This document shows, in pieces, positions 4,683 to 56,910 of a stretch of 64,000 bases of DNA (position 1 is the stretch's first letter; each line of letters opens with the position of its first letter). The notes beneath the pieces were generated by a model. The model did not search any database. It was not told the origin of the DNA and saw nothing but the letters and a program-made list of their open reading frames with translations. Position numbers and translations under genes: made by a program. Location: the NCBI GenBank assembly GCA_965224715.1, contig OZ245054.1:906411-970410 (forward strand), given 5' to 3'. Source of the DNA: Spirochaetota bacterium. GTDB taxonomy: Bacteria > Spirochaetota > UBA12135 > COTS27 > CAXSBA01.

Positions 4683-5357
4683 ATGTCAAAAGGAATATAT
4701 CATCGTGATGATTATTTTACAATAAAAGCACAAAGAGAGGGAGTTCGGGCAAGAAGTTATTATAAGCTAGAGGAAATCGATCGTAAATTCCAAATTTTTT
4801 CTCATTTAAACGAAAAAAACTGGGTATTAGACCTTGGCTGCAGTCCTGGTTCTTGGGTTCAATATGTTTTGAAGCAAACAAATGGCAAAGCCAACATTGT
4901 TGGAGTTGACCTTAAAGAAACCCAAAATTTTCCTGAATATACCAAGAAATTTCATTTTATTCAGGGTAATGTTGAAGAAATAACGGAATCTTCACTACTC
5001 CAGATCACTAAAAAGAGAAATTTTTCGGTAATTATGAGTGATATGGCTCCAAATACTACCGGTAATCCTGATCGAGATGCTTATTTATCCTATGAATTGG
5101 TATTACATAGTTGGGAGATAGTGAAAAACCTCTTTATTAGAGTTTCTAAGAAATTCCCTCAAGAGTCTTCACAAGAAGGAGTTTTTATTGCTAAATATTT
5201 TCAAGGAAAAGAAAGTATGAAACTTTTTAATCAACTCAGAAATGAAGTAAAGGATCTTAAGAAATCGATAAATTTATTTAATTTAGGGAAAGTAAAGTTA
5301 TTCAAACCTAGTTCCAGTCGAAAAAAATCTCGTGAAATTTATATCATTATTAAATAG
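4683..5357 (+). CDS. rlmE: 23S rRNA (uridine2552-2'-O)-methyltransferase RlmE/FtsJ
   Basis: YFTIKAQREGVRARSYYKLEEIDRKFQIF...VLDLGCSPGSWVQY matches the FtsJ family AdoMet motif. Confidence 0.8.
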   Translation: MSKGIYHRDDYFTIKAQREGVRARSYYKLEEIDRKFQIFSHLNEKNWVLDLGCSPGSWVQYVLKQTNGKANIVGVDLKETQNFPEYTKKFHFIQGNVEEITESSLLQITKKRNFSVIMSDMAPNTTGNPDRDAYLSYELVLHSWEIVKNLFIRVSKKFPQESSQEGVFIAKYFQGKESMKLFNQLRNEVKDLKKSINLFNLGKVKLFKPSSSRKKSREIYIIIK

Positions 5358-5469: not shown

Positions 5470-6330
5470 ATGATTATTAATTCAAATTTAAGTAGTATCA
5501 ATACTAACAGGGTAATGAAATTCCAGGCTGAAGAAAGTGATTTTCGGTTTCGGAATTTATCATCTGGTAAGAGGATAAATCGTGCCGGTGATGATGCTTC
5601 AGGTTTTGCGGTTTCAGCAAAAATGACTGGTCAAATCGAAGGTTTGGACCGAGCAGAAAAGAATGCTATGGATGGAATTTCCATGATTCAAACTGCGGAA
5701 GGCTATCTTCATGAAACGATCAATGTCATGAATAGGATCCGCGAGATAGCTATTCAAGCTGCTAACGGTGTTTATAGTGATGAAGATCGTCTTTATATTC
5801 ATGTAGAAGTTAGTCAGTTAGTTGCAGAAGTGGATAGGATTGCTCATTATGCGGAATTCAATGAATTAGCACTTCTTACAGGTAGATTCGCTAATGAAGA
5901 AGCTGGTGGGGTTCCTGCAAGCAGTATGTGGTTTCATATTGGAGCCAATCCTAATCAGAGAATCCGTGCTTTTATTGGGACTATGACTGCTTATGCATTT
6001 AATCTGAAGGATATTAATGACGATATTGCTATTTCTGTAAGTGCACCGTCTCAAGCAAACGATGCTTTGGAAGTGGTGGACAACTCACTGAAAAAGATCT
6101 TAAAACAATTGGCTGATCTTGGTGCTTATCAAAGTCGTTTAGAACATGTTACCAGAAGTTTAGCCGTAGGTAGCGAGAATCTGCAAGCTGCTCGGAGTCG
6201 AATTCGTGATGCTAATATGGCAGAAGAGGTATCAAAACTTTCAACTAGTCAAATTTTGTCTCAGTCGCAAGTTTCGGTTTTGGCTCAGTCCAATCAGAGA
6301 GCTCAGTCAGTTCTTCGTCTTCTTCAATAA
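5470..6330 (+). CDS. flaB: Flagellar filament core protein FlaB (spirochaete flagellin)
   Basis: 286 aa. MIINSNLS...RINRAGDDASGFAVS...IQAANGVYSDEDRLYIHVEVSQLVAEVDRIA...SSMWFHIGANPNQR...RIRDANMA closely parallels Treponema FlaB along its whole length. Confidence 0.9.
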   Translation: MIINSNLSSINTNRVMKFQAEESDFRFRNLSSGKRINRAGDDASGFAVSAKMTGQIEGLDRAEKNAMDGISMIQTAEGYLHETINVMNRIREIAIQAANGVYSDEDRLYIHVEVSQLVAEVDRIAHYAEFNELALLTGRFANEEAGGVPASSMWFHIGANPNQRIRAFIGTMTAYAFNLKDINDDIAISVSAPSQANDALEVVDNSLKKILKQLADLGAYQSRLEHVTRSLAVGSENLQAARSRIRDANMAEEVSKLSTSQILSQSQVSVLAQSNQRAQSVLRLLQ

Positions 6331-14138: not shown

Positions 14139-14663
14139 GTGACTATGATAAATAATCAGAAACTCCATACCATCTCTATCAAAGTCCAAAATCAACCAGG
14201 AGTACTGGGACGAGTGGCTCTCGTTTTTGCCCGTAGAGGCTTCAATATCGAATCCCTAGTAGTTTCTGCTTCCTATAAAAATCCAAAATTTTCTACAATG
14301 ACAGTTACAGCTTTAGGTGAAGAAAAAGAATTGGAGCAGATTATTAAACAGGTTAAGAAGTTGATTAATGTTATCAGTGCTACCGATTATATCCAAGATA
14401 ATAAATCAGAGAGCAAGATTATTGAAAAGGAATTAGCTTTGATTAAGGTAATATTTAGGAATGAAGAACTTACCCCAATTCTTCAAATTGTAGATCATTT
14501 TAAAGCTAAAACTCAAGATATGTTGGAAGGTTCCCTTATCGTACAAATCACTGGGAGTACAGAAAAAATAAATGCTTGCATCGGGATGCTGAAACAGTTT
14601 CACTTAGTGGAAGTGGTTCGCTCCGGCAAACTATTGATTCGCCGAGGCAAGGAAATTACTTAA
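14139..14663 (+). CDS. ilvN: Acetolactate synthase small (regulatory) subunit
   Basis: ACT domain HTISIKVQNQPGVLGRVALVFARRGFNIESLVV immediately downstream of ilvB. Confidence 0.8.
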   Translation: MTMINNQKLHTISIKVQNQPGVLGRVALVFARRGFNIESLVVSASYKNPKFSTMTVTALGEEKELEQIIKQVKKLINVISATDYIQDNKSESKIIEKELALIKVIFRNEELTPILQIVDHFKAKTQDMLEGSLIVQITGSTEKINACIGMLKQFHLVEVVRSGKLLIRRGKEIT

Positions 14664-14679
14664 ATTTATCCAGTCTTTG

Positions 14680-15150
14680 TCAATCAGTTGATGATCGTTT
14701 AGAGTCTAAATTTTTGCTATCCAGCCAGATTGTTACCGGACCCGCTAATAAGAGTTTGATCTCCATATCCTCGCCGAATTTACCCTCAGCAACTTTTCCT
14801 GAATAATTTTGTTTAAGTTCTTTCACTAATTTATTGATTAAAGATCTAGCCAATTCTCTTGAGGCACTTTTGTCGAATGAGGGTTTCGTTCCTTTTCTGA
14901 CATCGGCATGGAGGGTGAATTGACTCACCACCAAAATCTCCCCATTTATATTAACCACACTTTGGCTCATCTTTCCTCCTTGAGAGAAAATTCTTAAGTT
15001 CAAGACTTTTTGAGCTATCCACCGTACATCGGAGAATGTATCATCCTTCCCTACTGAAACTAATATAGTAAGTCCTCTTTCAATTTGTGATACCTTCTCA
15101 CCATCGACACTGAGGGAAGACCGGTTCACCCTTTGAACTACGGCTCTCAT
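14680..15150 (-). CDS. dtd: D-aminoacyl-tRNA deacylase
   Basis: MRAVVQRVNRSSLSVDGEKV...GLTILVSVGKDD...VVSQFTLHAD..KGTKPSF...GPVTIWLDS. Confidence 0.85.
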   Translation of the reverse strand: MRAVVQRVNRSSLSVDGEKVSQIERGLTILVSVGKDDTFSDVRWIAQKVLNLRIFSQGGKMSQSVVNINGEILVVSQFTLHADVRKGTKPSFDKSASRELARSLINKLVKELKQNYSGKVAEGKFGEDMEIKLLLAGPVTIWLDSKNLDSKRSSTD

Positions 15151-15163
15151 ATTTTTTGTAGAA

Positions 15164-18100
15164 CTATTCTTTTTTAAGAAAAAATTCTACTCGTCGATTT
15201 TTTCGATAATTATCTTCAATCATCTTTTCTCGAATCTTCCCGGTAATTTGAGGATCTACTTCTTTCTCTTTAAGGATAAGAAGCTCTTGTTTTCCTTTAC
15301 CTTCACTGGTTAGTCGATCTTTGTCTAAACCACCTTGATTCTGAAGATAGTTCAAAACTCGTAAAGCTCGTTTGATCGAAAGAGAATTATTGTATGCATC
15401 AGAACCTCGAGAGTCAGTATGTCCCACCACATTAATATGATAATCTGGAAATTTCCTAAGCATACGGATTAAAAGATTTAGGACTTTTTCATAGTTTCCT
15501 AACATTTTGTCTGAATTATATTGAAAATTGATACTGTTGAGGATAATTCGCAATCGACCATCAGAAAGTTTTTCTACAAGGATATCCACTAAAAATGAAT
15601 GTTCAACTGTAACCGGCAACCCTACCTTATCTCTACCTCTCACAAATAGAACATAATCTGTAGCAGATTCTACTGAATCACCCAAATCCCCTTTTCCATT
15701 CCAACTAAATTGCTTATCAAATTTCTTTGAGTTAAAATTCCATGACCAGGTTTTTAATGGAATTTGTTTTTGGTTGTGATAAAGATAGCTCTCTTCTGGA
15801 CTCATCTTTTTTGGAGTCTCCTCCTTACGAAAAATTGCAGCTCCTACATTCTTAATTCCATAATTATCATTAACAATAATTCTAACACTGAGTTTATCAT
15901 TAATATTATCTCCATCGGGTGAGAAAAAGAGAGGTTGCGTATTGACTGTAGCCGTTGGATATTCATTATCGATATAAATTTTCTTGACCGGTGACTGAGG
16001 TCGATTTCCAGATTTATACTCTGCAATAGCTTGGAGATAATAAAAACCACCTTGAAGTTCTATTCCATTTACTGTGTTTTTTTTTTGTTTTAATAAATTC
16101 CATTTTACAGAATTTATATTGTTCTTTCTGGCAAAAGCTGATTTTTTTTCATTGCTTAGAAAGAAACTATAAGATATACCCTGTATGCCCTCAGTAGAAG
16201 AAATTTCAGGGGTAATGATGAGTTCATGAGGGCTACCTTCAGGAAGTGAAGTAAGCAAATCAGGCATGACTTTCAAGTTTAATTCTTCAAATTTACGTAC
16301 TAGTCTAAATAGACGACTCTTATATGTTTTCTCATTAAAAGCATGATCAATAGTATCGATCCGTAATCGATAAATCCCTTCTGGGCTATCTTCTTCCACT
16401 TGATCTTTTCCCGTCCATAAAAGTTCACTTGGAAAATCTCCCTTCCATTCTTTTCGACGATAGATAACCTCCTTCCCTTCTTCCACTTTGAAGATGTATA
16501 CGGTAAACTGATCTGATTCAGGCCTCAGTACACTAGGTATGTGACGATTGTTGAAAATGATTTGATCTTTATTTCCATCATCATTAGGAGAGAAAGCTGT
16601 TTCGTGAGACATTATCTCCAATTCTACTGGGGTAGTATCTAAATAAAGTTTTTCAGCGGTTGATAAAATATCTTCTTGGGTTTGAAATTTGGCTGTAAAT
16701 GTGAAGAAATAAACTCCATCGGGAAGGGGTCCGGATTCAGAGCCATCACGATTAAACTGAGGATCGACAAGCCCATCCCAAACCAAAGTTTCTGGTAATT
16801 TGGTGAAGTAAAATTCCTTGACCGTTTCTTGACTTTCGTTATAGATAAGAAGTTTTCCTTCTGTAAGGATATTCCGATATCTATTGTTGATGTTGAAGCT
16901 AAAGCTGATTGTGTCGAGTTTGCCATCTCCATTGGGAGATATGGAAGTGTTGTCAGTTATCACTTCAACATTCAAATTCTCATCAATCACCTCAAAAGGA
17001 TCACTCACAACAGAGTTTATATTCTCTACTTCATCTTTTGCTTTAAACACATAGACGTATTTTCCAGGAGATATCTCACCTTTCTCGTTTTTTCCATCCC
17101 AAAGGAAATCTTTGGGGGGATGGTTATTGAGATAACTTCTTTTCAAAATTGAGTCCCCATTCTGCTTTAAAATTGATATTTGATAGGAATTAGTTTCCGA
17201 TAAATCGTAGATATGCATAGCCAACAGGTTTTTATATCCGGACCCGATGGCATTTGGATTAAGGATTTTATTTCGTAGTTTTACTCCAACGGTAGGTGCT
17301 TCAGTATCTATTTTGAAAGTAACAGGGGGGGAATTTGGTTGGTTACCAGAGCGAAACCAAGTTCGGAGTTGGGAAGTATAAATACCATCAAATAATTGTT
17401 GTCCATCATCAGACTTCCCTTCATAGAAAATAGCTTTGGCAAAAGGTGAATTTCCAAAAGTTTTTACGATTCTCCCTGACTCATTTTTTATTTCCAAATT
17501 CCATTTCTCCATTCCTTCTGTTGATGAGAGATAGGTTTCAAAAGTGATATTATCAAAGAAGCCATCTTGATTGGGAGAGAAAACTGGTTGAGAGACTTCC
17601 AAATTTATTTCCTCAAATTCACGAACCAAATAAACTTTTTTTTTTTCGCTTTTATAACTATTCCCTGCCAAATCCCGTGACTCCAGGGCGATATGATAGG
17701 TTCCAGTTGGAGCTTTTTCCCCATTATCGGTGATACCATCCCAAGAGATTGAGGTATTAGGTTCACTGGAAACAAAAGTTTTTGTAACTTTACCTTCTGA
17801 ATTGGATAGAGTCAAATACCAACTATCTTGAGAGTTAAAATTTTTGGAATTGATGGCAATTTGTAATTCATCTTTTCGTCCATCCCCATTGGGTGAGAAA
17901 ATGTCTGTATCTAAAATAAACTCAGATTTAGGTGAAATAATATCAACCACGATTGGGATCAGGGGACTTTTATTCTTGTTCCCCCAGCTATCCACCGCAG
18001 TAATGGTGAAATAATAGATACCATCTTCAACTAATTCCCCGTTGTCATTTCTCCCTTCCCACAGGTAGGAATTGGGAGCTTTTAGGGGAGTATCTTTAGC

Positions 18101-35903: not shown

Positions 35904-37178
35904 TTACAGTTTTTGTTCCCAATTGATACCGTCTGAGGATTTCCATACATCATTATAGCGAGAGCTGCCATCAATTCCACCGATGAGGTATAGTTCATTG
36001 TTAAACACGACTACACTGTGAGCTTGTCTTCCGGAAAACTGAGCTTGGTTAGTCACTTCTGTCCAATCGATACCGTCTGAGGATTTCCATACATCGTTTT
36101 TGAAAGAGCCATCATTTCCAACGATGAGGTATAGTTCATTGTTAAACTTGACTACACTGTGATCGTATCTTCCGGTAAACTGAGCGTTACCAGTCACTTC
36201 TGTCCAATCGATACCGTCTGAGGATTTCCATACATCGTTATAGCGAGTGTTTCCGCCCCCAAATCCACCGATGAGGTATAGTTCATTGTTAAACTCTACT
36301 ACACGGTGACTGTTTCTTTTGGGAAACTGAGCGTTACCAGTCACTTCTGTCCAATCGATACCGTCTGAGGATTTCCATACATCGTTTCTGAAAGAGCCTC
36401 TGCTATGCCCACCGATGAGGTATAGTTCATTGTTAAACTCTACTACACTGGGAGTATTTCTTTCGGAAAACTTAGCTTGAGTGGTAGTCACTTCTGTCCA
36501 GGTAGCACCGTCCGATGATTTCCATATATCATTTAGTTGATTGAAGCCACTACTTTCTCCTCCAATGAGATATAGTTCATTGCTAAACTTGACTAAACTG
36601 TGAAGGTATCTTCCGGAAAACTGAGCATTACCAGTAACTTCTGTCCAGGTAGCACCGTCTGAGGATTTCCATACATCGTTTAGTAGATTGTTGCCGGTAT
36701 CTTGTCCTCCGATGAGGTAGAGTTCATCGTTAAGTTTTACTACACTGTGAGAGTATCTTGCGGAAAAATGATTTACTTTTATGGAAACAGTTCCTGTAAC
36801 CGACCCCTTGTATTGGGGATTATTTTCGGTTACGGTTGCGGTTATGGTGTAAGTATTGGAAAAACCCGGAGCATTGGTTGTTACTGTGATGGTGCCGTTT
36901 GTTAGATTCAGGGTAACTCCATTTGGTAAGGGAGGCTCTACACTGTAGCTGTAGTCGCTATTAGTAGTAGCATCAGAGGGAGTTATGTTGGTTAGCTTAG
37001 CTGTCCTGCTGACTTCGGTTCCGTAATTGACTTGGATATTCTGATAGCTGATGCTACCTGTTATTTGTGTTTTGCCATCTGAGGAATCCGTAGAATTCGT
37101 CTCGGTGCTGCATCCTAAAGTTAGTATAGTCAGGATGGCTGTGAGAGCGATTGTTAATGAGATTTTTATTTTTTTCAT
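35904..37178 (-). CDS. Kelch-repeat beta-propeller lipoprotein (N-terminal Ig-like segment plus 6 Kelch-like blades)
   Basis: MKKIKISLTIALTAILTILTLGCS lipobox, then ~47-aa units repeated 6 times: NNELYLIGG...NDVWKSSDG(A/I)(T/D)WTEVT. Confidence 0.6.
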   Translation of the reverse strand: MKKIKISLTIALTAILTILTLGCSTETNSTDSSDGKTQITGSISYQNIQVNYGTEVSRTAKLTNITPSDATTNSDYSYSVEPPLPNGVTLNLTNGTITVTTNAPGFSNTYTITATVTENNPQYKGSVTGTVSIKVNHFSARYSHSVVKLNDELYLIGGQDTGNNLLNDVWKSSDGATWTEVTGNAQFSGRYLHSLVKFSNELYLIGGESSGFNQLNDIWKSSDGATWTEVTTTQAKFSERNTPSVVEFNNELYLIGGHSRGSFRNDVWKSSDGIDWTEVTGNAQFPKRNSHRVVEFNNELYLIGGFGGGNTRYNDVWKSSDGIDWTEVTGNAQFTGRYDHSVVKFNNELYLIVGNDGSFKNDVWKSSDGIDWTEVTNQAQFSGRQAHSVVVFNNELYLIGGIDGSSRYNDVWKSSDGINWEQKL

Positions 37179-48667: not shown

Positions 48668-48752
48668 TAAAAAATGGGCAGTTAAGGATGCCCAGCCTTG
48701 CAGTATGAACTTTATTATAGTCCACTTACCAAAGATATTGTATCATTAATTT
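48668..48752 (-). ncRNA. Candidate tracrRNA (anti-repeat, linker, GC hairpin, U-tract)
   Basis: Minus strand reads AUGAUACAAUAUCUUUGGUAAGUGGACUAUAAU (complementary, with a bulge and G:U pairs, to the minus-sense repeat GTTATAGCCCACTTACCACC...). Then aaaguucauacugcaaggcu, then GGGCAuccuuaacUGCCC, then AUUUUUU. Confidence 0.55.
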
Positions 48753-48797: not shown

Positions 48798-51700
48798 ATG
48801 AAAATTCTTGGAATTGATATGGGAATCACTTCTATTGGATGGGGCCTTATTCACTTTAATCCTCGGGAAAGAGAAGAAACTCGAATTATCGATGCCGGGG
48901 TAAGGATTTTTACCAAGGCTGAGCATCCAAAAGATGGATCTTCTCTGGCACTTCCTCGCAGAGAAGCCAGGGGAAGAAGACGAATATTAGTTAGAAAAAG
49001 GGAAAGGATGCAGAAAATCAAGGAGCTATTTATCGAGTATTTTGGTCTTGACCGTGAAAGTCTTTTTGAGATAGGGGATTACGGTTCTGGAACGATTTTT
49101 AAGGAGAAGAAGAAGAGTGATGTTTGGGAACTTAGAGATGCAGCCCTTGAAAGAAAATTAAGTCTAAAGGAGATGGCTAGAGTCCTGACCCATATCGCCA
49201 AACGCAGAGGTTATCATTCCAACAGTAAATCTGATGATTCAGAAAAAGACAAAGGTAAGGTTATTGAAGCGATTAAGGCTAATCAAGAAAATTTAAAAAA
49301 ATTAGGCTATTCTACACCGGGACAAATGATGTATCGGGAATCTCAAAAAAGTAGTTCCAAATCCGGTGATTATTTTTTACGAATTCGAAATACTACCAAT
49401 GATTATCGCCATGTAGTAACTCGGGAAATGCTCCGCGATGAAGTGGAAAAAATTTTTTCTGTTCAGAAAAAATTTTCCAAAAAATATTCTTCAGAGTTAA
49501 AGAACCGGTATTTGGATATAGCCTTTTATCAAAGACCACTCAAATCCAGCGAAGATATGGTAGGACCTTGTACTTTTGAGTCTGATGAAAAAAGGGCTCC
49601 TAAATACAGTTATAGTGCTGAACGATTTGTTTTGCTTGGCAAGATTATCAATACCATGATGATCGATGCCGGTGAAAATAATCGGTATAAAGAAAAGCGT
49701 CTCCTTGACTTCTGTCCGATGGATAAAATTCTTGAAGTCTTTCATGACCAGAAAGAGGTGAAATACCAAACTTTGAGGAAAAATTTAGAGATAGCAGATC
49801 ATCTCAAATTTAAAGATGTCAACTATAACGAGGATCCGGAGAATAAAAAGCTTCCCAAGGTAGATTCTTTTTTTAAAAAAGAGACCTGGTTAGAGAAAGA
49901 TCAAAAAGAACTCTTGACTTATAATGATAAGGAGAATCATTCACACTTTCATAAATGGATCCGAAAATATACGGACATTAGAAGGGCTTTGAAACTTGAT
50001 AAGAATTTTGAATTTATCTCTTTGAAAAGTGATTATAAGAAGCACCCTGAAAGCAAGGAATTCTACTCGCTAAAGGGGTATCATATTTTCAAAAAAGCAT
50101 TATCTTCAGAAGAATTTGAACAGTTTTTTCAAAATCTTTCGGTTTATAATGAGGTAGCTTATATCTTAACCGTAGAGCAAGGAATTAAAGAAATCCGAGA
50201 GCGTTTAGAGTCTATTCCTGGCATTTCCTCCTATATCGATAAGCTGGTCACCATTACGGGCTTTAAGGGATTTAATCATTTGTCCATTAAGGCGATGAAC
50301 AAACTTACCCCTCATCTTAGGGCTGGGAAACGATATGATGAGGCTGCTCGGGAGGTGTATGGACATCACTCGGTTAAAAAGGGAAATCAGGCTGAACTCC
50401 TGAGAATCTTGAATCGAGAAGAGAATTATCAACTTACCAACCCGGTGGTGAAACGGGCCTTCGCTCAATTTCGCAAGGTTGTTAATGCAATAGTCCGAAA
50501 GCATGGTCAGTTTGATAGCCTTCATATTGAACTAGCCCGCGAGCTAAAGCATAGTTACAAGCAACGGCAAGAAATCATACGGGGGCAAAATGAATTTAAA
50601 GGTAACAAGGATGCGGCTAAGGAAAAGTTTATAGAACTCTGTCGCAGAGAACCGGCTGCGAGTGAACTTCTAAAATTTCGTTTGTGGGAGGAACAAGAAG
50701 GGAAATCAGTTTATAGCGGTAAGCCTATCTCTATTAACGAATTGGCAAAAAACGATAAGGCTTTCGAAATTGATCATATTCTTCCTTATAGTCGAACTTT
50801 CGATAATACCCTCAATAACAAAGTTTTGGTGTTAGCAGAAGAGAATCAACATAAGAAAAACCGAACTCCCTTTGAATGGTTGGGAAAGAAAAATGAAGAC
50901 GATCCCTCCTGGCTGGAATTCAAAAGTCGATTATTCAGTTTTAAGAATTTGGGAAAAGCTAAGATTAATAAACTTTTCAATACCACCCTGTCTCAAAAAC
51001 ACGGGGAAGAATTCGATGAAGACGATCCGGAAAGTAATTTTTTCATCAATCGCAATCTCAACGATACTCAGTTCATGGCTAAGTTTATTAAAAATTTTGT
51101 GGAACAGAACCTTAAATTTGCCGATAACCCGGATGTCAAGCAAAAGGTCAAAGTGAGGAATGGGATGGTAACTTCTCATCTTGCCTATCTTTGGGGAATA
51201 GGTCGGGTGATCCAGGAAATCCTTCCTACTGAAAAAGAAGATCGAGATGGAAAAGATCCGACCAAGAAGATTCGAGATAATCACCTCCACCATGCCCTTG
51301 ATGCCCTGGTGATTGCCGCTACCACTCAAAGCGAAGTGCAGCGGATGTCCACTTATTCTGCCCGTTTTGAAGATTATCAGTTCAAAAGTAAGGAGGAGAA
51401 GGAGAAAGTTAAAAAACTGAGAACCTCCACGCCCTTCAATGACGAGGAACTGAAGCGGAAACTCTCGAATATTTTTCCTTCCTATGCTCCCCGTCGTAAG
51501 GTGACCGGAGCCGCCCATGAAGAAACCCTTTACAGTGGAAAAACTTATCAGTCAAAAAACAAATCCAAATTGGTCGGAGCTAGCCTTAAGTACCCGGTAA
51601 AACTCAACCACGGAAAGACCTTGGCTAAAAAAAGTTCCATGCCTCGTATCGATCTCTTCCGTCATGTGGAAAACAAAAAATATTTCATCGTCCCCATCTA

Positions 51701-52097
51701 TGTAGCTGACTTTGTCAAAAAACAACTGCCCAGTCATGCGATTATTGGCGGAAAAGATAAGGAAGGAAACCCCAAACCCTGGTTAGAGATGGATGATAGC
51801 TATGAGTTCATCACTTCCATCTATAAGAACGATCTCATCGAAGTGAAGACAAAGAAGGAAACAGTAAGAGGCTACTTTGATAGCGCTGACAGTAGTACCG
51901 GTACTATCTCTTTAAAATCTCCTCAAACCGGTCATCCTTTTAGGAAAGGTATGGGAATTCAAGGAGCTTTACAAGTTCGTAAATTCGAGGTCTCTCCTCT
52001 TGGTGAAATCCATGAGGTTTCCCTCCCTCAAGATCGGGTGGGAACCCTCCATGAGTTGAGAAGGATCAAGAAAGAAAAAGCAATGGATAAAAACTAA
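48798..52097 (+). CDS. cas9: Cas9 (type II-C size class, 1099 aa)
   Basis: RuvC-I MKILGIDMGITSIGWG. Arg-rich bridge helix RREARGRRRILVRKRER. HNH EIDHILPYSRTFDNTLNNKVLV...NRTPFEW. RuvC-III HHALDALVIAATT. RBS aaaggag lies 6 nt upstream. Confidence 0.95.
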   Translation: MKILGIDMGITSIGWGLIHFNPREREETRIIDAGVRIFTKAEHPKDGSSLALPRREARGRRRILVRKRERMQKIKELFIEYFGLDRESLFEIGDYGSGTIFKEKKKSDVWELRDAALERKLSLKEMARVLTHIAKRRGYHSNSKSDDSEKDKGKVIEAIKANQENLKKLGYSTPGQMMYRESQKSSSKSGDYFLRIRNTTNDYRHVVTREMLRDEVEKIFSVQKKFSKKYSSELKNRYLDIAFYQRPLKSSEDMVGPCTFESDEKRAPKYSYSAERFVLLGKIINTMMIDAGENNRYKEKRLLDFCPMDKILEVFHDQKEVKYQTLRKNLEIADHLKFKDVNYNEDPENKKLPKVDSFFKKETWLEKDQKELLTYNDKENHSHFHKWIRKYTDIRRALKLDKNFEFISLKSDYKKHPESKEFYSLKGYHIFKKALSSEEFEQFFQNLSVYNEVAYILTVEQGIKEIRERLESIPGISSYIDKLVTITGFKGFNHLSIKAMNKLTPHLRAGKRYDEAAREVYGHHSVKKGNQAELLRILNREENYQLTNPVVKRAFAQFRKVVNAIVRKHGQFDSLHIELARELKHSYKQRQEIIRGQNEFKGNKDAAKEKFIELCRREPAASELLKFRLWEEQEGKSVYSGKPISINELAKNDKAFEIDHILPYSRTFDNTLNNKVLVLAEENQHKKNRTPFEWLGKKNEDDPSWLEFKSRLFSFKNLGKAKINKLFNTTLSQKHGEEFDEDDPESNFFINRNLNDTQFMAKFIKNFVEQNLKFADNPDVKQKVKVRNGMVTSHLAYLWGIGRVIQEILPTEKEDRDGKDPTKKIRDNHLHHALDALVIAATTQSEVQRMSTYSARFEDYQFKSKEEKEKVKKLRTSTPFNDEELKRKLSNIFPSYAPRRKVTGAAHEETLYSGKTYQSKNKSKLVGASLKYPVKLNHGKTLAKKSSMPRIDLFRHVENKKYFIVPIYVADFVKKQLPSHAIIGGKDKEGNPKPWLEMDDSYEFITSIYKNDLIEVKTKKETVRGYFDSADSSTGTISLKSPQTGHPFRKGMGIQGALQVRKFEVSPLGEIHEVSLPQDRVGTLHELRRIKKEKAMDKN

Positions 52098-52165: not shown

Positions 52166-53077
52166 TTGATTATGGCTTGGCGATCTGTTTCTATCACCCA
52201 TCCCGCTCATCTTTCGGTGTCTTCGGGTCGTCTCAAGATCGCCCAGGAAGAAACCCATTTCCTCCCTCTCGATGATCTTAATGCTATCATCTTGAGTCAT
52301 CCCCGGATATCTCTTACCGCTCCCCTCCTGGGACGGTTGGCAGATCACAATATTGCGGTGTTTAGTACCGATGAACGGCATCTCCCTAATGGGGTTTTTT
52401 ACTCCTTTCAGGGTCATAGTCGGCAGACCAAGATGATCAAGGAGCAGATCGGTTGGTCATTACCTTTTAAAAAAAGGATGCAGCAGAAAATCATAATCAA
52501 CAAAATCAGAAATCAGGGAGAGGTTTTAAATTACCTCTATCCCGAGACTCGTCCGGGAGAAAAGCTGTTTCCTTTAATCAAGGATGTTGATTCCGGTGAT
52601 CGCCGCAATCGAGAGTCGCAGGCTGCCAGTCAATATTTTCGAATCTTATTTCATGCCTTTAACCGTCGAGCAGACAACCTCCACAATGCGGCTCTCAATT
52701 ACGGCTATTCCTTAGTCAGGGGATTTACCGCCCGGGCAGTTGTAGCCCATGGTTTTATTCCCTGTTTGGGACTTTTTCATGATAGTGAGCTTAACTCGTT
52801 TAATTTAGCCGATGATCTCATGGAGCCTTACCGTCCCCTCGTGGATGAGAGAATATTCCAATTACTGGGAAAAGATACCCGAAAAGTATCCGACAGTGAA
52901 CTTAGCCCGGAATTAAAAAAATCTATAGCGGAGATTATTTTCACTCCCTGTCGATTGCGGGGGGAGGAATTACAGCTTCATCACAGCCTGGATGTTCTCG
53001 CTCGAAGTCTTAGCAGTGCCTCCCGGCATAATGACTACAAACGTTTTTTAGAAGTGGAGTTGATTTTATCTTCATGA
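52166..53077 (+). CDS. cas1: Cas1 (type II). TTG start in the ORF track; alternative ATG at 52172
   Basis: NAALNYGYSLVRGFTARAVVAHGFIPCLGLFHDSELNSFNLADDLMEPYRPLVD matches the type II Cas1 core. 4-nt overlap with cas2. Confidence 0.9.
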   Translation: MIMAWRSVSITHPAHLSVSSGRLKIAQEETHFLPLDDLNAIILSHPRISLTAPLLGRLADHNIAVFSTDERHLPNGVFYSFQGHSRQTKMIKEQIGWSLPFKKRMQQKIIINKIRNQGEVLNYLYPETRPGEKLFPLIKDVDSGDRRNRESQAASQYFRILFHAFNRRADNLHNAALNYGYSLVRGFTARAVVAHGFIPCLGLFHDSELNSFNLADDLMEPYRPLVDERIFQLLGKDTRKVSDSELSPELKKSIAEIIFTPCRLRGEELQLHHSLDVLARSLSSASRHNDYKRFLEVELILSS

Positions 53078-53400
53078 AAGAGGAGGATCGGTTTTTGCGT
53101 CTTTTTGTTTTTTTCGATTTACCGGTAGTGAGCGAACAGGAAAGAAGCCGAGCCGGTCGTTTCCGGCGACTACTCATTAAAAATGGTTTTTTTATGATAC
53201 AGTTCTCCATTTATTGTCGAATCTGTCGAGGACAGCAGAATGTGGATAAATATCGCAAACGGATCAAATCCTATCTCCCCCCTTACGGCAATATTCGCCT
53301 CATGCAGGTAACAGAGAAACAGTTTGAGAATATGGAAATTTTACTAGGAAAATTTAAAAAAGAAGAAAAATTTAAAGATAATCAACTTCTCCTTTTTTAA
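53074..53400 (+). CDS. cas2: Cas2
   Basis: LRLFVFFDLPVVSEQERSRAGRFRRLLIKNGFFMIQFSIY is a typical Cas2 N-terminal beta-alpha fold signature. 108 aa. Confidence 0.85.
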   Translation: MKEEDRFLRLFVFFDLPVVSEQERSRAGRFRRLLIKNGFFMIQFSIYCRICRGQQNVDKYRKRIKSYLPPYGNIRLMQVTEKQFENMEILLGKFKKEEKFKDNQLLLF

Positions 53401-53521
53401 AAAATTCAGAAAAAATTTGACTCAAGTCACAGTTTTAGCCCCTCCTCAATGTATTTTTTTGATCAAAAAAACCTTGATTTCCTAAGTTTTTCCATAGAAA
53501 ATCAGGGTTTTTTCGAGACGT

Positions 53522-55404
53522 ATTATAACACAGAAAAGGTGGTAAGTGGGCTATAACGGGGCAGATGACAAATACGGAAATATCGATATTATAACACAGA
53601 AAAGGTGGTAAGTGGGCTATAACACTGCGGGTTTTAGCTACATAGAATTAATTATTATAACACAGAAAAGGTGGTAAGTGGGCTATAACTTGAACCCCAT
53701 TATTCAGAATTTAAATAATATTATAACACAGAAAAGGTGGTAAGTGGGCTATAACGGTTATCTTGAATTCACCTATTCCTCAGATATTATAACACAGAAA
53801 AGGTGGTAAGTGGGCTATAACACTAAAGCTCAAGGGGGGTTCAAGGTAACAATTATAACACAGAAAAGGTGGTAAGTGGGCTATAACCCTGTACCTGTGT
53901 TCTTTGGTGAGGTTGCAATTATAACACAGAAAAGGTGGTAAGTGGGCTATAACATCGATTACAAACTCTTGTGCCGCCTCAAGATTATAACACAGAAAAG
54001 GTGGTAAGTGGGCTATAACGATTTAAGGAAGAAGAAGGCAGAAGCTGACATTATAACACAGAAAAGGTGGTAAGTGGGCTATAACTAGTCATAGCCACGC
54101 CTGCCACAAGGTCTCATTATAACACAGAAAAGGTGGTAAGTGGGCTATAACTTCATAGATAGTCCAATGGAAAGTGTCGATATTATAACACAGAAAAGGT
54201 GGTAAGTGGGCTATAACGATGACACCAGAGCAACAAATAAAAAAGTTATTATAACACAGAAAAGGTGGTAAGTGGGCTATAACGAATAAATACCCTTTAT
54301 GCTTATAACTCTAATTATAACACAGAAAAGGTGGTAAGTGGGCTATAACTGATACTATGAACGAAGATAGGAAAATAAAGATTATAACACAGAAAAGGTG
54401 GTAAGTGGGCTATAACGCCTCTGATTTAATATTCTTAAACGCCTCAATTATAACACAGAAAAGGTGGTAAGTGGGCTATAACCGATATATATCGCAGAAG
54501 TTACCTGTAGACATTATAACACAGAAAAGGTGGTAAGTGGGCTATAACTATTGTACTAAACTGCTACTTTTTAATTTTATTATAACACAGAAAAGGTGGT
54601 AAGTGGGCTATAACAAAGGTAATTTAAGTAGTAAGAGAGTAGCTATTATAACACAGAAAAGGTGGTAAGTGGGCTATAACTCGCACCCGTGTTAGTATTC
54701 GTGGGTGTGAATTATAACACAGAAAAGGTGGTAAGTGGGCTATAACGGCAAAAAAAAACACACCTTAAGATTATTATTATAACACAGAAAAGGTGGTAAG
54801 TGGGCTATAACCTTCGTCAAGGAGCAGTACTGACACCGATTATTATAACACAGAAAAGGTGGTAAGTGGGCTATAACATCTTGAGTTCACATACTCGGCT
54901 GAGTATGATTATAACACAGAAAAGGTGGTAAGTGGGCTATAACTCAGGGTTTGTGATGATGAACGGATCTTTAATTATAACACAGAAAAGGTGGTAAGTG
55001 GGCTATAACATATTAATAGAATACACGCCAGACTGTCAGATTATAACACAGAAAAGGTGGTAAGTGGGCTATAACCTTTGTCCCCATCGATAAGAGGTTT
55101 GTCTATTATAACACAGAAAAGGTGGTAAGTGGGCTATAACACCCCATACCCTCCCCCACCAGTTGGGGAGATTATAACACAGAAAAGGTGGTAAGTGGGC
55201 TATAACAGGTACATTGGTCTTGTGAAAGCTATCGGGATTATAACACAGAAAAGGTGGTAAGTGGGCTATAACCATTAAGTCGATGTCATGAGTTGAAAGA
55301 ACATTATAACACAGAAAAGGTGGTAAGTGGGCTATAACTCAGAGGTTACGAGTTGGTTACGAGTTGTCATTATAACACAGAAAAGGTGGTAAGTGGGCTA
55401 TAAC
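53522..55404 (-). CRISPR. CRISPR array: 29 identical 36-bp repeats and 28 spacers (29-31 bp, mostly 30). The crRNA sense is inferred to be the minus strand (repeat 5'-GTTATAGCCCACTTACCACCTTTTCTGTGTTATAAT-3')
   Basis: Repeat starts at 53522, 53588, ... 55369 (period 66). Plus-strand repeat is ATTATAACACAGAAAAGGTGGTAAGTGGGCTATAAC. The minus-sense repeat begins GTT.TAG like other type II repeats and ends in the extended -10 TGTTATAAT. Confidence 0.95.
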
Positions 55405-55424
55405 TCGGAAGGCTTATAAAAAAT

Positions 55425-55475
55425 GTCTGCGTTTATCTGCGGTAAATAAAATCGTATCCGCAGATAAACGCAGAC
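55425..55475 (-). terminator. Strong hairpin (18-bp perfect stem, 15-nt loop) followed on the minus strand by a T6 tract; likely terminator of the minus-strand ABC-transporter operon, shielding the array
   Basis: gtctgcgtttatctgcgg / ccgcagataaacgcagac. The plus strand is preceded by ttataaaaaat, which reads aTTTTTTataa on the minus strand after the stem. Confidence 0.5.
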
Positions 55476-55690
55476 GGCGGATGGTGAGATAATATACCCT
55501 TGAAGATAAAACTTTTACCTAGACTCCTTCTTAACTCTGGATGAGGGTTTGCCATTGACATCTAACATTTCTTTTTTCATAATTTTATTGCCTTTCTATA
55601 GTTATTTTTTATATTGATCTTGACTTCATTAACAGATGACAGGGGTATTCTATCAATATTTTCTTCAAAGTATCTCCAAGAGTACTATTT

Positions 55691-55726
55691 CTATAAGGTT
55701 ATAAATAACACGGAAGAGGTGGTAAA
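55691..55726. repeat. Degenerate CRISPR repeat remnant ~290 bp beyond the array
   Basis: ataaATAACACgGAAgAGGTGGTAAaTaGGttttat vs ATAACACAGAAAAGGTGGTAAGTGGGCTATAAC. Confidence 0.4.
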
Positions 55727-55803
55727 TAGGTTTTATTATTTTCTCATTATTTGTTATTTCATAAAGCATTTAAAACTTAAAGAATGTGATTGAGTACTTT
55801 TTG

Positions 55804-56910
55804 CTATACTTTAGGAAAGAAAATATAGGGTTTGTTGATTACGTGGACGGTAACCTGGTCGCCGATATTTTTTTCAAAGTCTGCCGGCATTAGTGAATAA
55901 AGGATTAAATGATCCTGATCTGAGGAATTGGGATAAGCGATTTGAACCCGATAGAGATAGCTTCCACTTTGAAATTCTTTCCCGACAATCACCCCGATGG
56001 CCGTACCTTTCTTTTTCTCTCTTCTATTCAAAATAACATTTTCCGGCCTTAGGTGAACCCTGACCTCTTGTTCTTTGTAACATTTAATATTCGACGGACT
56101 ATTGCCCTTAAAAGAAAACCAATGATTAATTGCTTGATTTTGGGAATAAATCGCTGTAACAAAGGATCCGATGCCGATGAAACCTGCTGTAAAGCAAGTA
56201 GTGGGAAAGTAATAGATTTCCTTAGGGGTTCCAAGTTGTTCCAACCGGTATTCTTGCATGACACCGACACGATGAGATATTTTAAAAGCCTCATTTTGGT
56301 CATGGGTGACAATTAAGGTAGTGATCTTCTCTTTTTGAAGAAGATACAATACCGAATCAATGATCTTGGCTTTGAGTCCCACATCTTGACTGGTGAAGGG
56401 TTCATCCATGAGGAGTAACTTGGGGCGAGGTGCGATAGAACGAGCCAAAGAGGTACGTTGCTGCTGTCCTCCGGAGATTTCATGCGGATATTTCTCAGCA
56501 AGAGGGAGGATGTCGAGGATATTCAGGATCTCTCGGATTCTTTCCTGAGTTTCAGACTTTTTTTGTGCTGCCTTGGGGATACCAAATATCACATTTTCAT
56601 ATACGGTGAGGTGGGGAAAGAGAGCATTATCTTGAAAGACCATGCCGAGTCCACGTTTTCGGGTAGGGAGTGATTTACTTGGAGTTTGTACTGTGGAACC
56701 TGAAATACAGATTTTCCCATTACAGATGTTTTCTAATCCGGCAATATTTTTAAGTAAGGTAGTTTTGCCGCAACCGGAGGGACCCAGTAGAGAAATGATC
56801 TCTTCGGGATAAATAGTAAGAGAGAAATGATCCAAAATAATTTTATTTCCGTATTTTGAAGTAATTTCTTTGATCTCTAAAACCGGTGTCATGTTTTTCA
56901 TTGTTTCCAT
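55804..56910 (-). CDS. ABC transporter ATP-binding protein (Fe3+/spermidine PotA/FbpC type)
   Basis: Walker A LLGPSGCGKTT, signature SGGQQQR, Walker B LLLMDEPF. C-terminal TOBE-like domain. Confidence 0.8.
   Translation of the reverse strand: METMKNMTPVLEIKEITSKYGNKIILDHFSLTIYPEEIISLLGPSGCGKTTLLKNIAGLENICNGKICISGSTVQTPSKSLPTRKRGLGMVFQDNALFPHLTVYENVIFGIPKAAQKKSETQERIREILNILDILPLAEKYPHEISGGQQQRTSLARSIAPRPKLLLMDEPFTSQDVGLKAKIIDSVLYLLQKEKITTLIVTHDQNEAFKISHRVGVMQEYRLEQLGTPKEIYYFPTTCFTAGFIGIGSFVTAIYSQNQAINHWFSFKGNSPSNIKCYKEQEVRVHLRPENVILNRREKKKGTAIGVIVGKEFQSGSYLYRVQIAYPNSSDQDHLILYSLMPADFEKNIGDQVTVHVINKPYIFFPKV

Follow-up and report, generated by a model that had tools for sequence, protein, structure and literature searches.

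A type II-C CRISPR array of an uncultured Spirochaetota lineage whose repeats very likely carry their own crRNA promoters

Introduction

In Campylobacter jejuni, differential RNA sequencing (dRNA-seq) and primer extension place the primary 5' ends of the CRISPR RNAs (crRNAs) at spacer position 5, and the repeats end in GGTAAAAT (Dugar et al. 2013, PMC3656092). Neisseria meningitidis likewise has promoters embedded in its repeats, with initiation at the sixth spacer nucleotide (PMC12477760; reviewed in PMC5965381). Its crRNAs come from these promoters independently of processing (PMC5965381; PMC12477760), and the leader-adjacent repeat is the one copy that gives rise to no crRNA (PMC12477760). 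In both species the array is transcribed in the direction opposite to the cas operon (PMC3737331). In type II-A systems, by contrast, a single leader promoter gives rise to a long precursor (pre-crRNA) in the cas-operon direction, the 5' ends of which are trimmed (PMC12477760; PMC3737331). Here we describe a CRISPR-Cas9 locus, type II-C by its gene content, in a 64,000-nucleotide (nt) stretch of a Spirochaetota genome (contig OZ245054.1, positions 906,411 to 970,410; the whole stretch is referred to as the window), with its array at 53522-55404. An earlier note, made from the letters of this DNA, had proposed that each repeat starts a transcript on the minus strand toward cas2, citing the Neisseria and Campylobacter precedents, which it described accurately (PMC3656092, PMC12477760, PMC3737331). 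Our analysis makes it highly probable that promoters borne by the repeats drive minus-strand crRNAs in this array.

The likeness to N. meningitidis extends over much of the locus. Both have cas9, cas1 and cas2 only, with 36-nt repeats and 30-nt spacers; both repeats start with GTT.TAGC and end in TGnTA.AAT; and in both the array runs opposite to the cas operon with the leader at the transcription-distal end, an arrangement that is inferred for the window. The N. meningitidis repeat ends in TGCTACAAT, which the predicted promoter of the window's trans-activating crRNA (tracrRNA), TGATACAAT, resembles. The processing-independent crRNAs of this species were reportedly described by Zhang et al. 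in Mol Cell in 2013. The two systems differ in that the window Cas9 is not close to that of N. meningitidis, that its tracrRNA, encoded on the opposite strand upstream of cas9, has a single hairpin and at ~63 nt is much shorter, and that its start sites and RNase III independence are predictions from sequence.

The C. jejuni system and that of the window both place an extended -10 element of their own at each repeat's 3' end (GGTAAAAT and TGTTATAAT, respectively), and both have a short tracrRNA, of ~62-74 nt in C. jejuni and ~63 nt in the window. Helicobacter and Campylobacter loci (L051 and L071), with repeats ending in TGGTAGAAT and TGGTATAAT, were found with the same profile and belong to the same broad Cas9 family; their tracrRNA is located between cas2 and the array, that of the window upstream of cas9. 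The window further differs from C. jejuni in the perfect consensus of its -10 element, in its phylum, Spirochaetota, in the terminator hairpins on both sides of its array, and in a 297-nt insert that detaches the terminal repeat. With the type II-A system of Streptococcus pyogenes it shares Cas9, a tracrRNA and repeat:anti-repeat pairing, but it lacks csn2, and on its transcription-proximal side a leader promoter could not be accommodated.

The array and its repeat

An exact search of the plus strand finds 29 identical 36-nt repeats, ATTATAACACAGAAAAGGTGGTAAGTGGGCTATAAC, between 53522 and 55404, separated by 28 spacers, of which 25 are 30 nt long, two 29 nt and one 31 nt. Read on the minus strand the repeat is GTTATAGCCCACTTACCACCTTTTCTGTGTTATAAT, as the earlier note had it, and all 29 copies end in TGTTATAAT, which agrees with the extended -10 consensus TGnTATAAT at every position; TGnTAnnnT thus stands at the 3' end of the repeat, in the sense of the crRNA established below, in 29 of 29 copies. 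The sites occupy the first nine plus-strand bases of each repeat, from 53522-53530 to 55369-55377, the latter (minus strand) being that of the first repeat in crRNA sense. A usable -35 element is absent, TTACCA lying just 12 nt upstream of the -10 element. Extended -10 promoters typically lack a -35 element.

The window contains 34 sites of the form TGNTATAAT, 29 of them in the array, all on the minus strand at the last nine bases of a repeat, while dinucleotide shuffles yield 4.8 +/- 2.2 such sites and reach 34 in none of 100 trials. As the 29 copies are one sequence repeated and not independent, the fair chance figure is that for a single repeat unit. It comes to ~6e-5 at each position, to 1.2e-4 when the terminal position of either strand is counted, and to 3e-3 when the motif may lie at any place in the unit.

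Within the oldest spacer (55339-55368), which is the cas-distal one, GGTTACGAGTTG occurs twice as an internal direct duplication. A second region of the window, 35919-36771, was initially picked up by a detector of CRISPR-like k-mers; it consists of ~5.9 copies of a 147-nt (49-codon) tandem unit at 78% identity, looks like a coding region for a repeat domain, and was rejected as an array.

Conservation of the repeat end

A profile built from an alignment of 25 Cas9 sequences identified 80 Cas9-related loci in a scan of GTDB genomes; a genome scan with the single Cas9 sequence gave no matches. Arrays are present in 54 of the 80 loci, always downstream of cas2, and provide 40 distinct 36-nt repeats. 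On the strand opposite cas9, TGNTANNNT lies exactly at positions 28-36 in 31 of these 40; on the cas9 strand it does so in none. The pattern is also seen at close range. L001 (Cas9 92% identical, fully syntenic), L002 (49%) and L084 (48%) form a close clade with the window, and their repeats share with that of the window the 5' 18 nt (GTTATAGCCC[A/G]CTTACCA) and a 3' TG[T/A]TATAAT, while the 9-12 nt between these shared ends vary freely. A metagenome scan with the conserved 5' repeat module GTTATAGCCCRCTTACCA returned 11 single chance matches and no arrays.

Per-position frequencies were taken over 42 distinct repeats, namely the 40 together with those of L001 and L084. For the nine terminal positions they are T.86, G.98, n.62, T 1.0, A 1.0, T.90, A.79, A.79 and T.95, so that the -12T, -11A and -7T are 95-100% conserved, the G of the TG is also strong, and the 'n' is the weakest of the nine.

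Could such an end arise for another reason? The TATAAT-like sequence might be a by-product of AT-rich, partly palindromic termini suited to the Cas1-Cas2 integrase, with a long precursor, made from a single external promoter in the manner of type II-A, as the source of the crRNAs. Positions 2-6 and 31-35 are indeed largely complementary (76-100%), so TATAA[C/T] appears at both ends, and the cas9 strand also ends in TATAAC, matching five of six bases in 24 of the 40 repeats. Palindromy of the termini accounts for positions 31-35, but not for the decisive T28 and T36: T36 is present in 40 of the 42 repeats and complements position 1 in three, and T28 is present in 36 and complements position 9 in one. 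Nor does it explain why the least conserved of the nine positions is the one that the promoter consensus leaves free, or why the other strand is nearly devoid of the TG (2/40) and of the -7T (1/40). An external promoter, moreover, would have to fit between the first repeat and a strong terminator 13-20 nt upstream of it, where no good promoter can be placed, and homologous repeats are proven promoters in C. jejuni and N. meningitidis (PMC3656092, PMC12477760). We therefore regard this alternative, although the best of those considered, as improbable; the 3' nine bases appear to evolve under the constraints of a -10 element rather than those of a palindrome.

The use of similar motifs elsewhere in the window is consistent with repeat-borne promoters. 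Outside the array, four of five TGNTATAAT sites (p ~1e-5) and eight of 24 TGNTANAAT sites (p ~2e-6) are intergenic and lie within 200 nt upstream of a gene start on the correct strand, against an expected fraction of 3.7%. This enrichment, together with the type of promoter predicted for the tracrRNA, suggests that the host RNA polymerase accepts extended -10 promoters without a -35 element.

The tracrRNA and the polarity of the array

A scan of the window for repeat-like sequence outside the array gave two matches, 48714-48749 and 55702-55737. The first lies between the RNase H gene and cas9 and resembles the minus reading of the repeat. On the minus strand this region reads as a predicted extended -10 promoter, TGATACAAT (48737-48745), then 7 nt, the anti-repeat GGTAAGTGGACTATAAT, the AAGGC-type linker AAAGTTCATACTGCAAGGC, a hairpin and TTTTTT, which together predict a tracrRNA of ~63 nt at 48669-48731. 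The promoter is identical in L001, and L002 has TATAAT at the same place. With three further T residues, (TTT)GGTAAGTGGACTATAAT, the anti-repeat spans 48733-48714 and is the best minus-reading anti-repeat in the window; the hairpin (48694-48675) has the form TGGGCA-TCCTTAAC-TGCCCA, and with the T-run at 48674-48669 it is called as a terminator on the minus strand. The predicted RNA thus combines an anti-repeat, a structured tail and a terminator. A search with Rfam models at permissive thresholds gave no meaningful match to the tracrRNA region, nor to the array or the flanking DNA.

Of the 18 nt that open the minus-sense repeat, 17 can pair with the anti-repeat, 16 by Watson-Crick pairs and one by G:U; the exception is an internal C·A mismatch. 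The geometry is canonical for Cas9, running from the spacer through the 5' end of the repeat, paired to the 3' end of the anti-repeat, and on into the tail. The tracrRNA is kept in both L001, where tracrRNA and leader are 92-95% conserved, and L002, where a compensatory change has occurred: CCCACTT in the repeat has become CCCGCTT, and AAGTGG in the anti-repeat has become AAGCGG. In the L002 duplex the mismatch position is a 2-nt bulge, and the hairpin stem is retained. About ten further relatives (alphaproteobacterial, Gastranaerophilales and other) have the same layout 65-110 nt upstream of cas9 on the opposite strand, with an anti-repeat ending in CTATAAT, an AAGGC-type linker, a hairpin and a T-run.

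Because the predicted tracrRNA promoter, tail and terminator are specific to one strand and the pairing is canonical, the crRNA can be assigned to the minus-strand transcript, the polarity that the earlier note had deduced from the repeat. The tracrRNA polarity, the degenerate repeat at the cas-distal end and the conserved leader on the cas2 side together support its further proposal that transcription runs toward cas2, opposite to the cas operon.

The opposite polarity, with plus-strand array transcripts that run the same way as cas9-cas1-cas2 and arise by read-through or from a promoter near the cas2 end, would give a crRNA repeat reading AUUAUAACAC...CUAUAAC. Weak sigma-70-like matches (9/12 bases) do lie on the plus strand at 53324-53382, in the 3' end of cas2, and a plus-strand RNA from upstream of cas9 would form an equally good duplex, at -28 kcal/mol. 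However, a leader hairpin with a plus-strand T-run stands between the cas2-end sites and the array, and the plus-strand partner would be the 5' untranslated region of cas9, which has no terminator; the only RNA that combines an anti-repeat, a conserved hairpin and a T-run with canonical pairing is on the minus strand. Since the plus-strand repeat ends also lack the -7T and the TG, and experimentally mapped relatives have arrays read against the direction of the cas operon (PMC3737331), we consider plus-strand transcription very unlikely.

In L084 the degenerate terminal repeat (5566-5600) ends in GGTAAGTGGACTATAAT, identical to the window anti-repeat (48714-48730), and no anti-repeat is visible in the 142 nt of that contig upstream of cas9. 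The identity could reflect descent of tracrRNAs from terminal repeats, or alternatively convergence.

Leader and flanking terminators

The leader comprises the 121 nt between cas2 and the array (53401-53521), at the transcription-distal end of the array, and is the probable site of spacer integration. We place it on the cas2 side because the repeat at the other end is degenerate and because it is 95% identical to the leader of L001. Degenerate repeats mark the old end of arrays. Within the leader, 53463-53516 folds into a hairpin that stands between an A-run and a T-run, in the form of a bidirectional terminator, and ends 6 nt from the array; the minus strand gives -24.1 kcal/mol and z = -4.4, the plus strand z = -3.2. 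The cas operon transcript (plus strand) and the array transcripts (minus strand) are both predicted to stop here. Hairpins flanked by A-runs and T-runs are found in all four close-clade leaders, 6-55 nt from the leader-adjacent repeat (window 53463-53516, L001 ~14658-14707, L002 12799-12830, L084 ~5044-5080), that of L001 being a conserved counterpart and those of L002 and L084 analogues; they would separate the cas operon from convergent array transcription.

At the other end of the array, an intrinsic terminator on the minus strand (55416-55475) lies 13-20 nt upstream of the first repeat in crRNA sense. The hairpin that the earlier note placed at 55425-55475 is real: its perfect 18-bp stem gives -32.4 kcal/mol at z = -7.8, and on the minus strand, but not on the plus strand, it is followed by AUUUUUUAU. 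Its proposal that the repeat promoters explain this terminator is not borne out, as the hairpin lies upstream of the array in crRNA sense, on a segment that is missing from L001. Most plausibly, the terminator ends transcripts of the ATP-binding cassette (ABC) transporter operon, the last gene of which ends at 55804 without a terminator of its own, and so insulates the array. The terminator makes the repeat promoters necessary here, rather than being explained by them. With terminator-shaped hairpins within 6-20 nt of both array ends there is no room for an external promoter, and therefore any crRNA must start inside the array.

The lineage-specific segment and the detached terminal repeat

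The second repeat-like match, 55702-55737, agrees with the repeat at 25 of 36 positions. The cas-distal repeat of L001 degenerates likewise (…GGTAAGTGGGTTTTATTG) and its flank aligns with 55702-55830 at 81-88%; because both the L001 terminal repeat and its flank are homologous, we interpret 55702-55737 as an ancestral terminal repeat that is degenerate and no longer adjoins the array. As a candidate tracrRNA it was rejected, in view of this homology and of the lack of a structured tail or terminator on the plus strand (z = -0.2). The L001 array (14720-14822) has two repeats and one spacer, which the window does not share; it may be truly minimal, or it may have collapsed in the Logan short-read assembly.

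A lineage-specific segment of 297 nt (55405-55701) parts the array of the window from this detached repeat; it is absent from L001 and without another copy in the window or the fetched loci. Besides the 18-bp hairpin terminator on the minus strand, it contains a near-consensus sigma-70 promoter on the plus strand (TTGACA, 17 nt, CATAAT; 55555-55583), which faces the degenerate terminal repeat, and a 21-codon minus-strand open reading frame (ORF; 55583 to 55518, MKKEMLDVNGKPSSRVKKESR) with AGAAAGG 10 nt upstream. No RNA of the window would pair with the crRNA repeat more strongly than a plus-strand RNA through 55702-55737 (-36 kcal/mol, as compared with -23 to -29 kcal/mol for the tracrRNA). 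It is conceivable, if a long shot, that such an RNA acts as a decoy anti-repeat or crRNA sponge, tuning the amount of crRNA that reaches Cas9. In N. meningitidis, spacer acquisition is controlled by crRNA abundance (PMC12477760).

In L002, near the cas-distal end (17636-17967), a truncated repeat is followed by ~310 nt with an 87-amino-acid (aa) minus-strand ORF and then by two intact repeats. In sequence this insert is unlike the 297-nt segment of the window; the two may be coincidental, or old array ends may be prone to insertions.

The cas genes and their relatives

The locus is, as judged from its genes and RNAs, a complete type II-C CRISPR-Cas9 system, in the order tracrRNA, cas9, cas1, cas2, leader, 29-repeat array and detached degenerate terminal repeat. 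cas9 (48798-52097, plus strand) encodes 1099 aa and matches Pfam HNH_4 and RuvC_III as well as NCBIfam TIGR01865 (661 bits, cut-off 100); the protein has every invariant column of the 25-sequence alignment. cas1 (52166-53077, plus strand), which matches the type II model cas1_NMENI, and cas2 (53074-53400, plus strand) were likewise identified with Pfam and NCBIfam. Neither csn2 nor cas4 was found at the locus in the ORF map and Pfam matches. The RNase H gene lies upstream, and the ABC-transporter operon downstream on the minus strand.

Apart from L001, no Cas9 was found with more than 49% identity. Among named relatives the nearest, at ~40%, belong to Campylobacterota and to a Spirochaetota metagenome-assembled genome (MAG), OZ255710.1 (L003/L004), whose Cas9 (cas9 at L003 8001-11312) is the closest genome match, at 41%. 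In that MAG the cas9 gene is followed by a 670-nt gap, and neither an array nor a called cas1 or cas2 gene appears within 8 kb downstream; this cas9 may be an orphan or have been repurposed. The window also encodes an OmpA/FlgD-Ig surface protein, the named homologues of which are all from Spirochaetota, one of them on the chromosome of the same MAG.

Discussion

The motif, its conservation, its use by the host, the polarity and the terminators are drawn from sequence and comparison, and from them we infer initiation, start position and processing as follows. The host sigma-70 RNA polymerase would start from the TGTTATAAT at the repeat end, without a -35 element, on the minus strand toward cas2. 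By analogy with C. jejuni (PMC3656092) and N. meningitidis (PMC12477760), the start is predicted 5-7 nt into the downstream spacer, which would give guides of ~24-26 nt with 5' ends that require no processing. Pairing of the ~63-nt tracrRNA with the 18 nt at the 5' end of the next repeat (GUUAUAGCCCACUUACCA) would then serve loading into Cas9, RNase III cleavage being optional. The earlier note held that each of the 29 units starts a transcript. The extended -10 element is present in all 29, but 28 of the repeats would yield guides, as the leader-adjacent one (53522-53557) would fire into the leader and its hairpin, a terminator that would shield cas2 from antisense transcription. New spacers probably enter at the cas2-proximal leader, the transcription-distal end; with a promoter in every repeat, the newest spacers would therefore stay expressed.

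Several observations weigh against this scheme. Nine of the 40 family repeats lack the full TGNTANNNT, some Sulfurimonas repeats for example having CGCTATACT, so the motif is not obligatory in the Cas9 family. Purine enrichment at the predicted +1 was not found among 942 family spacers; an excess of A or G at spacer position 5 in the window (20/28), which might be read as a start signal, we take as noise, given that the family spacers show none. Duplex energies calculated with RNAduplex fail to separate the two polarities (-23 to -29 versus -28 kcal/mol) because the complementarity is symmetric. Finally, protospacers, from which the side of the protospacer-adjacent motif (PAM) would have given a further check, were not found: the whole array gave just one chance match, at 80% identity, among deposited phages and none among plasmids, and the four leader-proximal spacers had no exact match in IMG/VR. 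A metagenome scan with the conserved 5' repeat module GTTATAGCCCRCTTACCA returned 11 single chance matches and no arrays.

That the locus is a silent relic, its motifs inherited from an active ancestor and its array no longer expressed or used, is very unlikely: missing protospacers (phages, plasmids and, for four spacers, IMG/VR) and a distal array end disrupted by the 297-nt segment would fit, but an uncultured lineage poorly represented in virus databases is expected to lack such matches, none of the 29 repeats differs from the others, the ORFs of cas9, cas1 and cas2 are intact and retain all invariant family residues, and the tracrRNA and leader are 92-95% conserved in L001 while the spacer content is wholly different, which suggests ongoing turnover.

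With its predicted repeat promoters the window locus is a further example of the Neisseria/Campylobacter-type class, the mechanism of which was established experimentally in 2013; what is known of that mechanism is left unaltered. In practical terms, what a single guide RNA (sgRNA) and a PAM screen call for is now at hand, namely the polarity of the guide, its likely length and the repeat:anti-repeat module; the implied form of the sgRNA is guide(24)-GUUAUAGCCCACUUACCA-loop-UGGUAAGUGGACUAUAAUAAAGUUCAUACUGCAAGGCUGGGCAUCCUUAACUGCCCAUUUUUU, and the window tracrRNA would be about the shortest that is workable. The comparison of 42 repeats extends the observation of 2013 over Campylobacterota, Alphaproteobacteria, Clostridia, Gastranaerophilales and the lineage of the window, in which this mode of making crRNAs would be exemplified in a different, uncultured group, Spirochaetota, with a divergent and compact Cas9.

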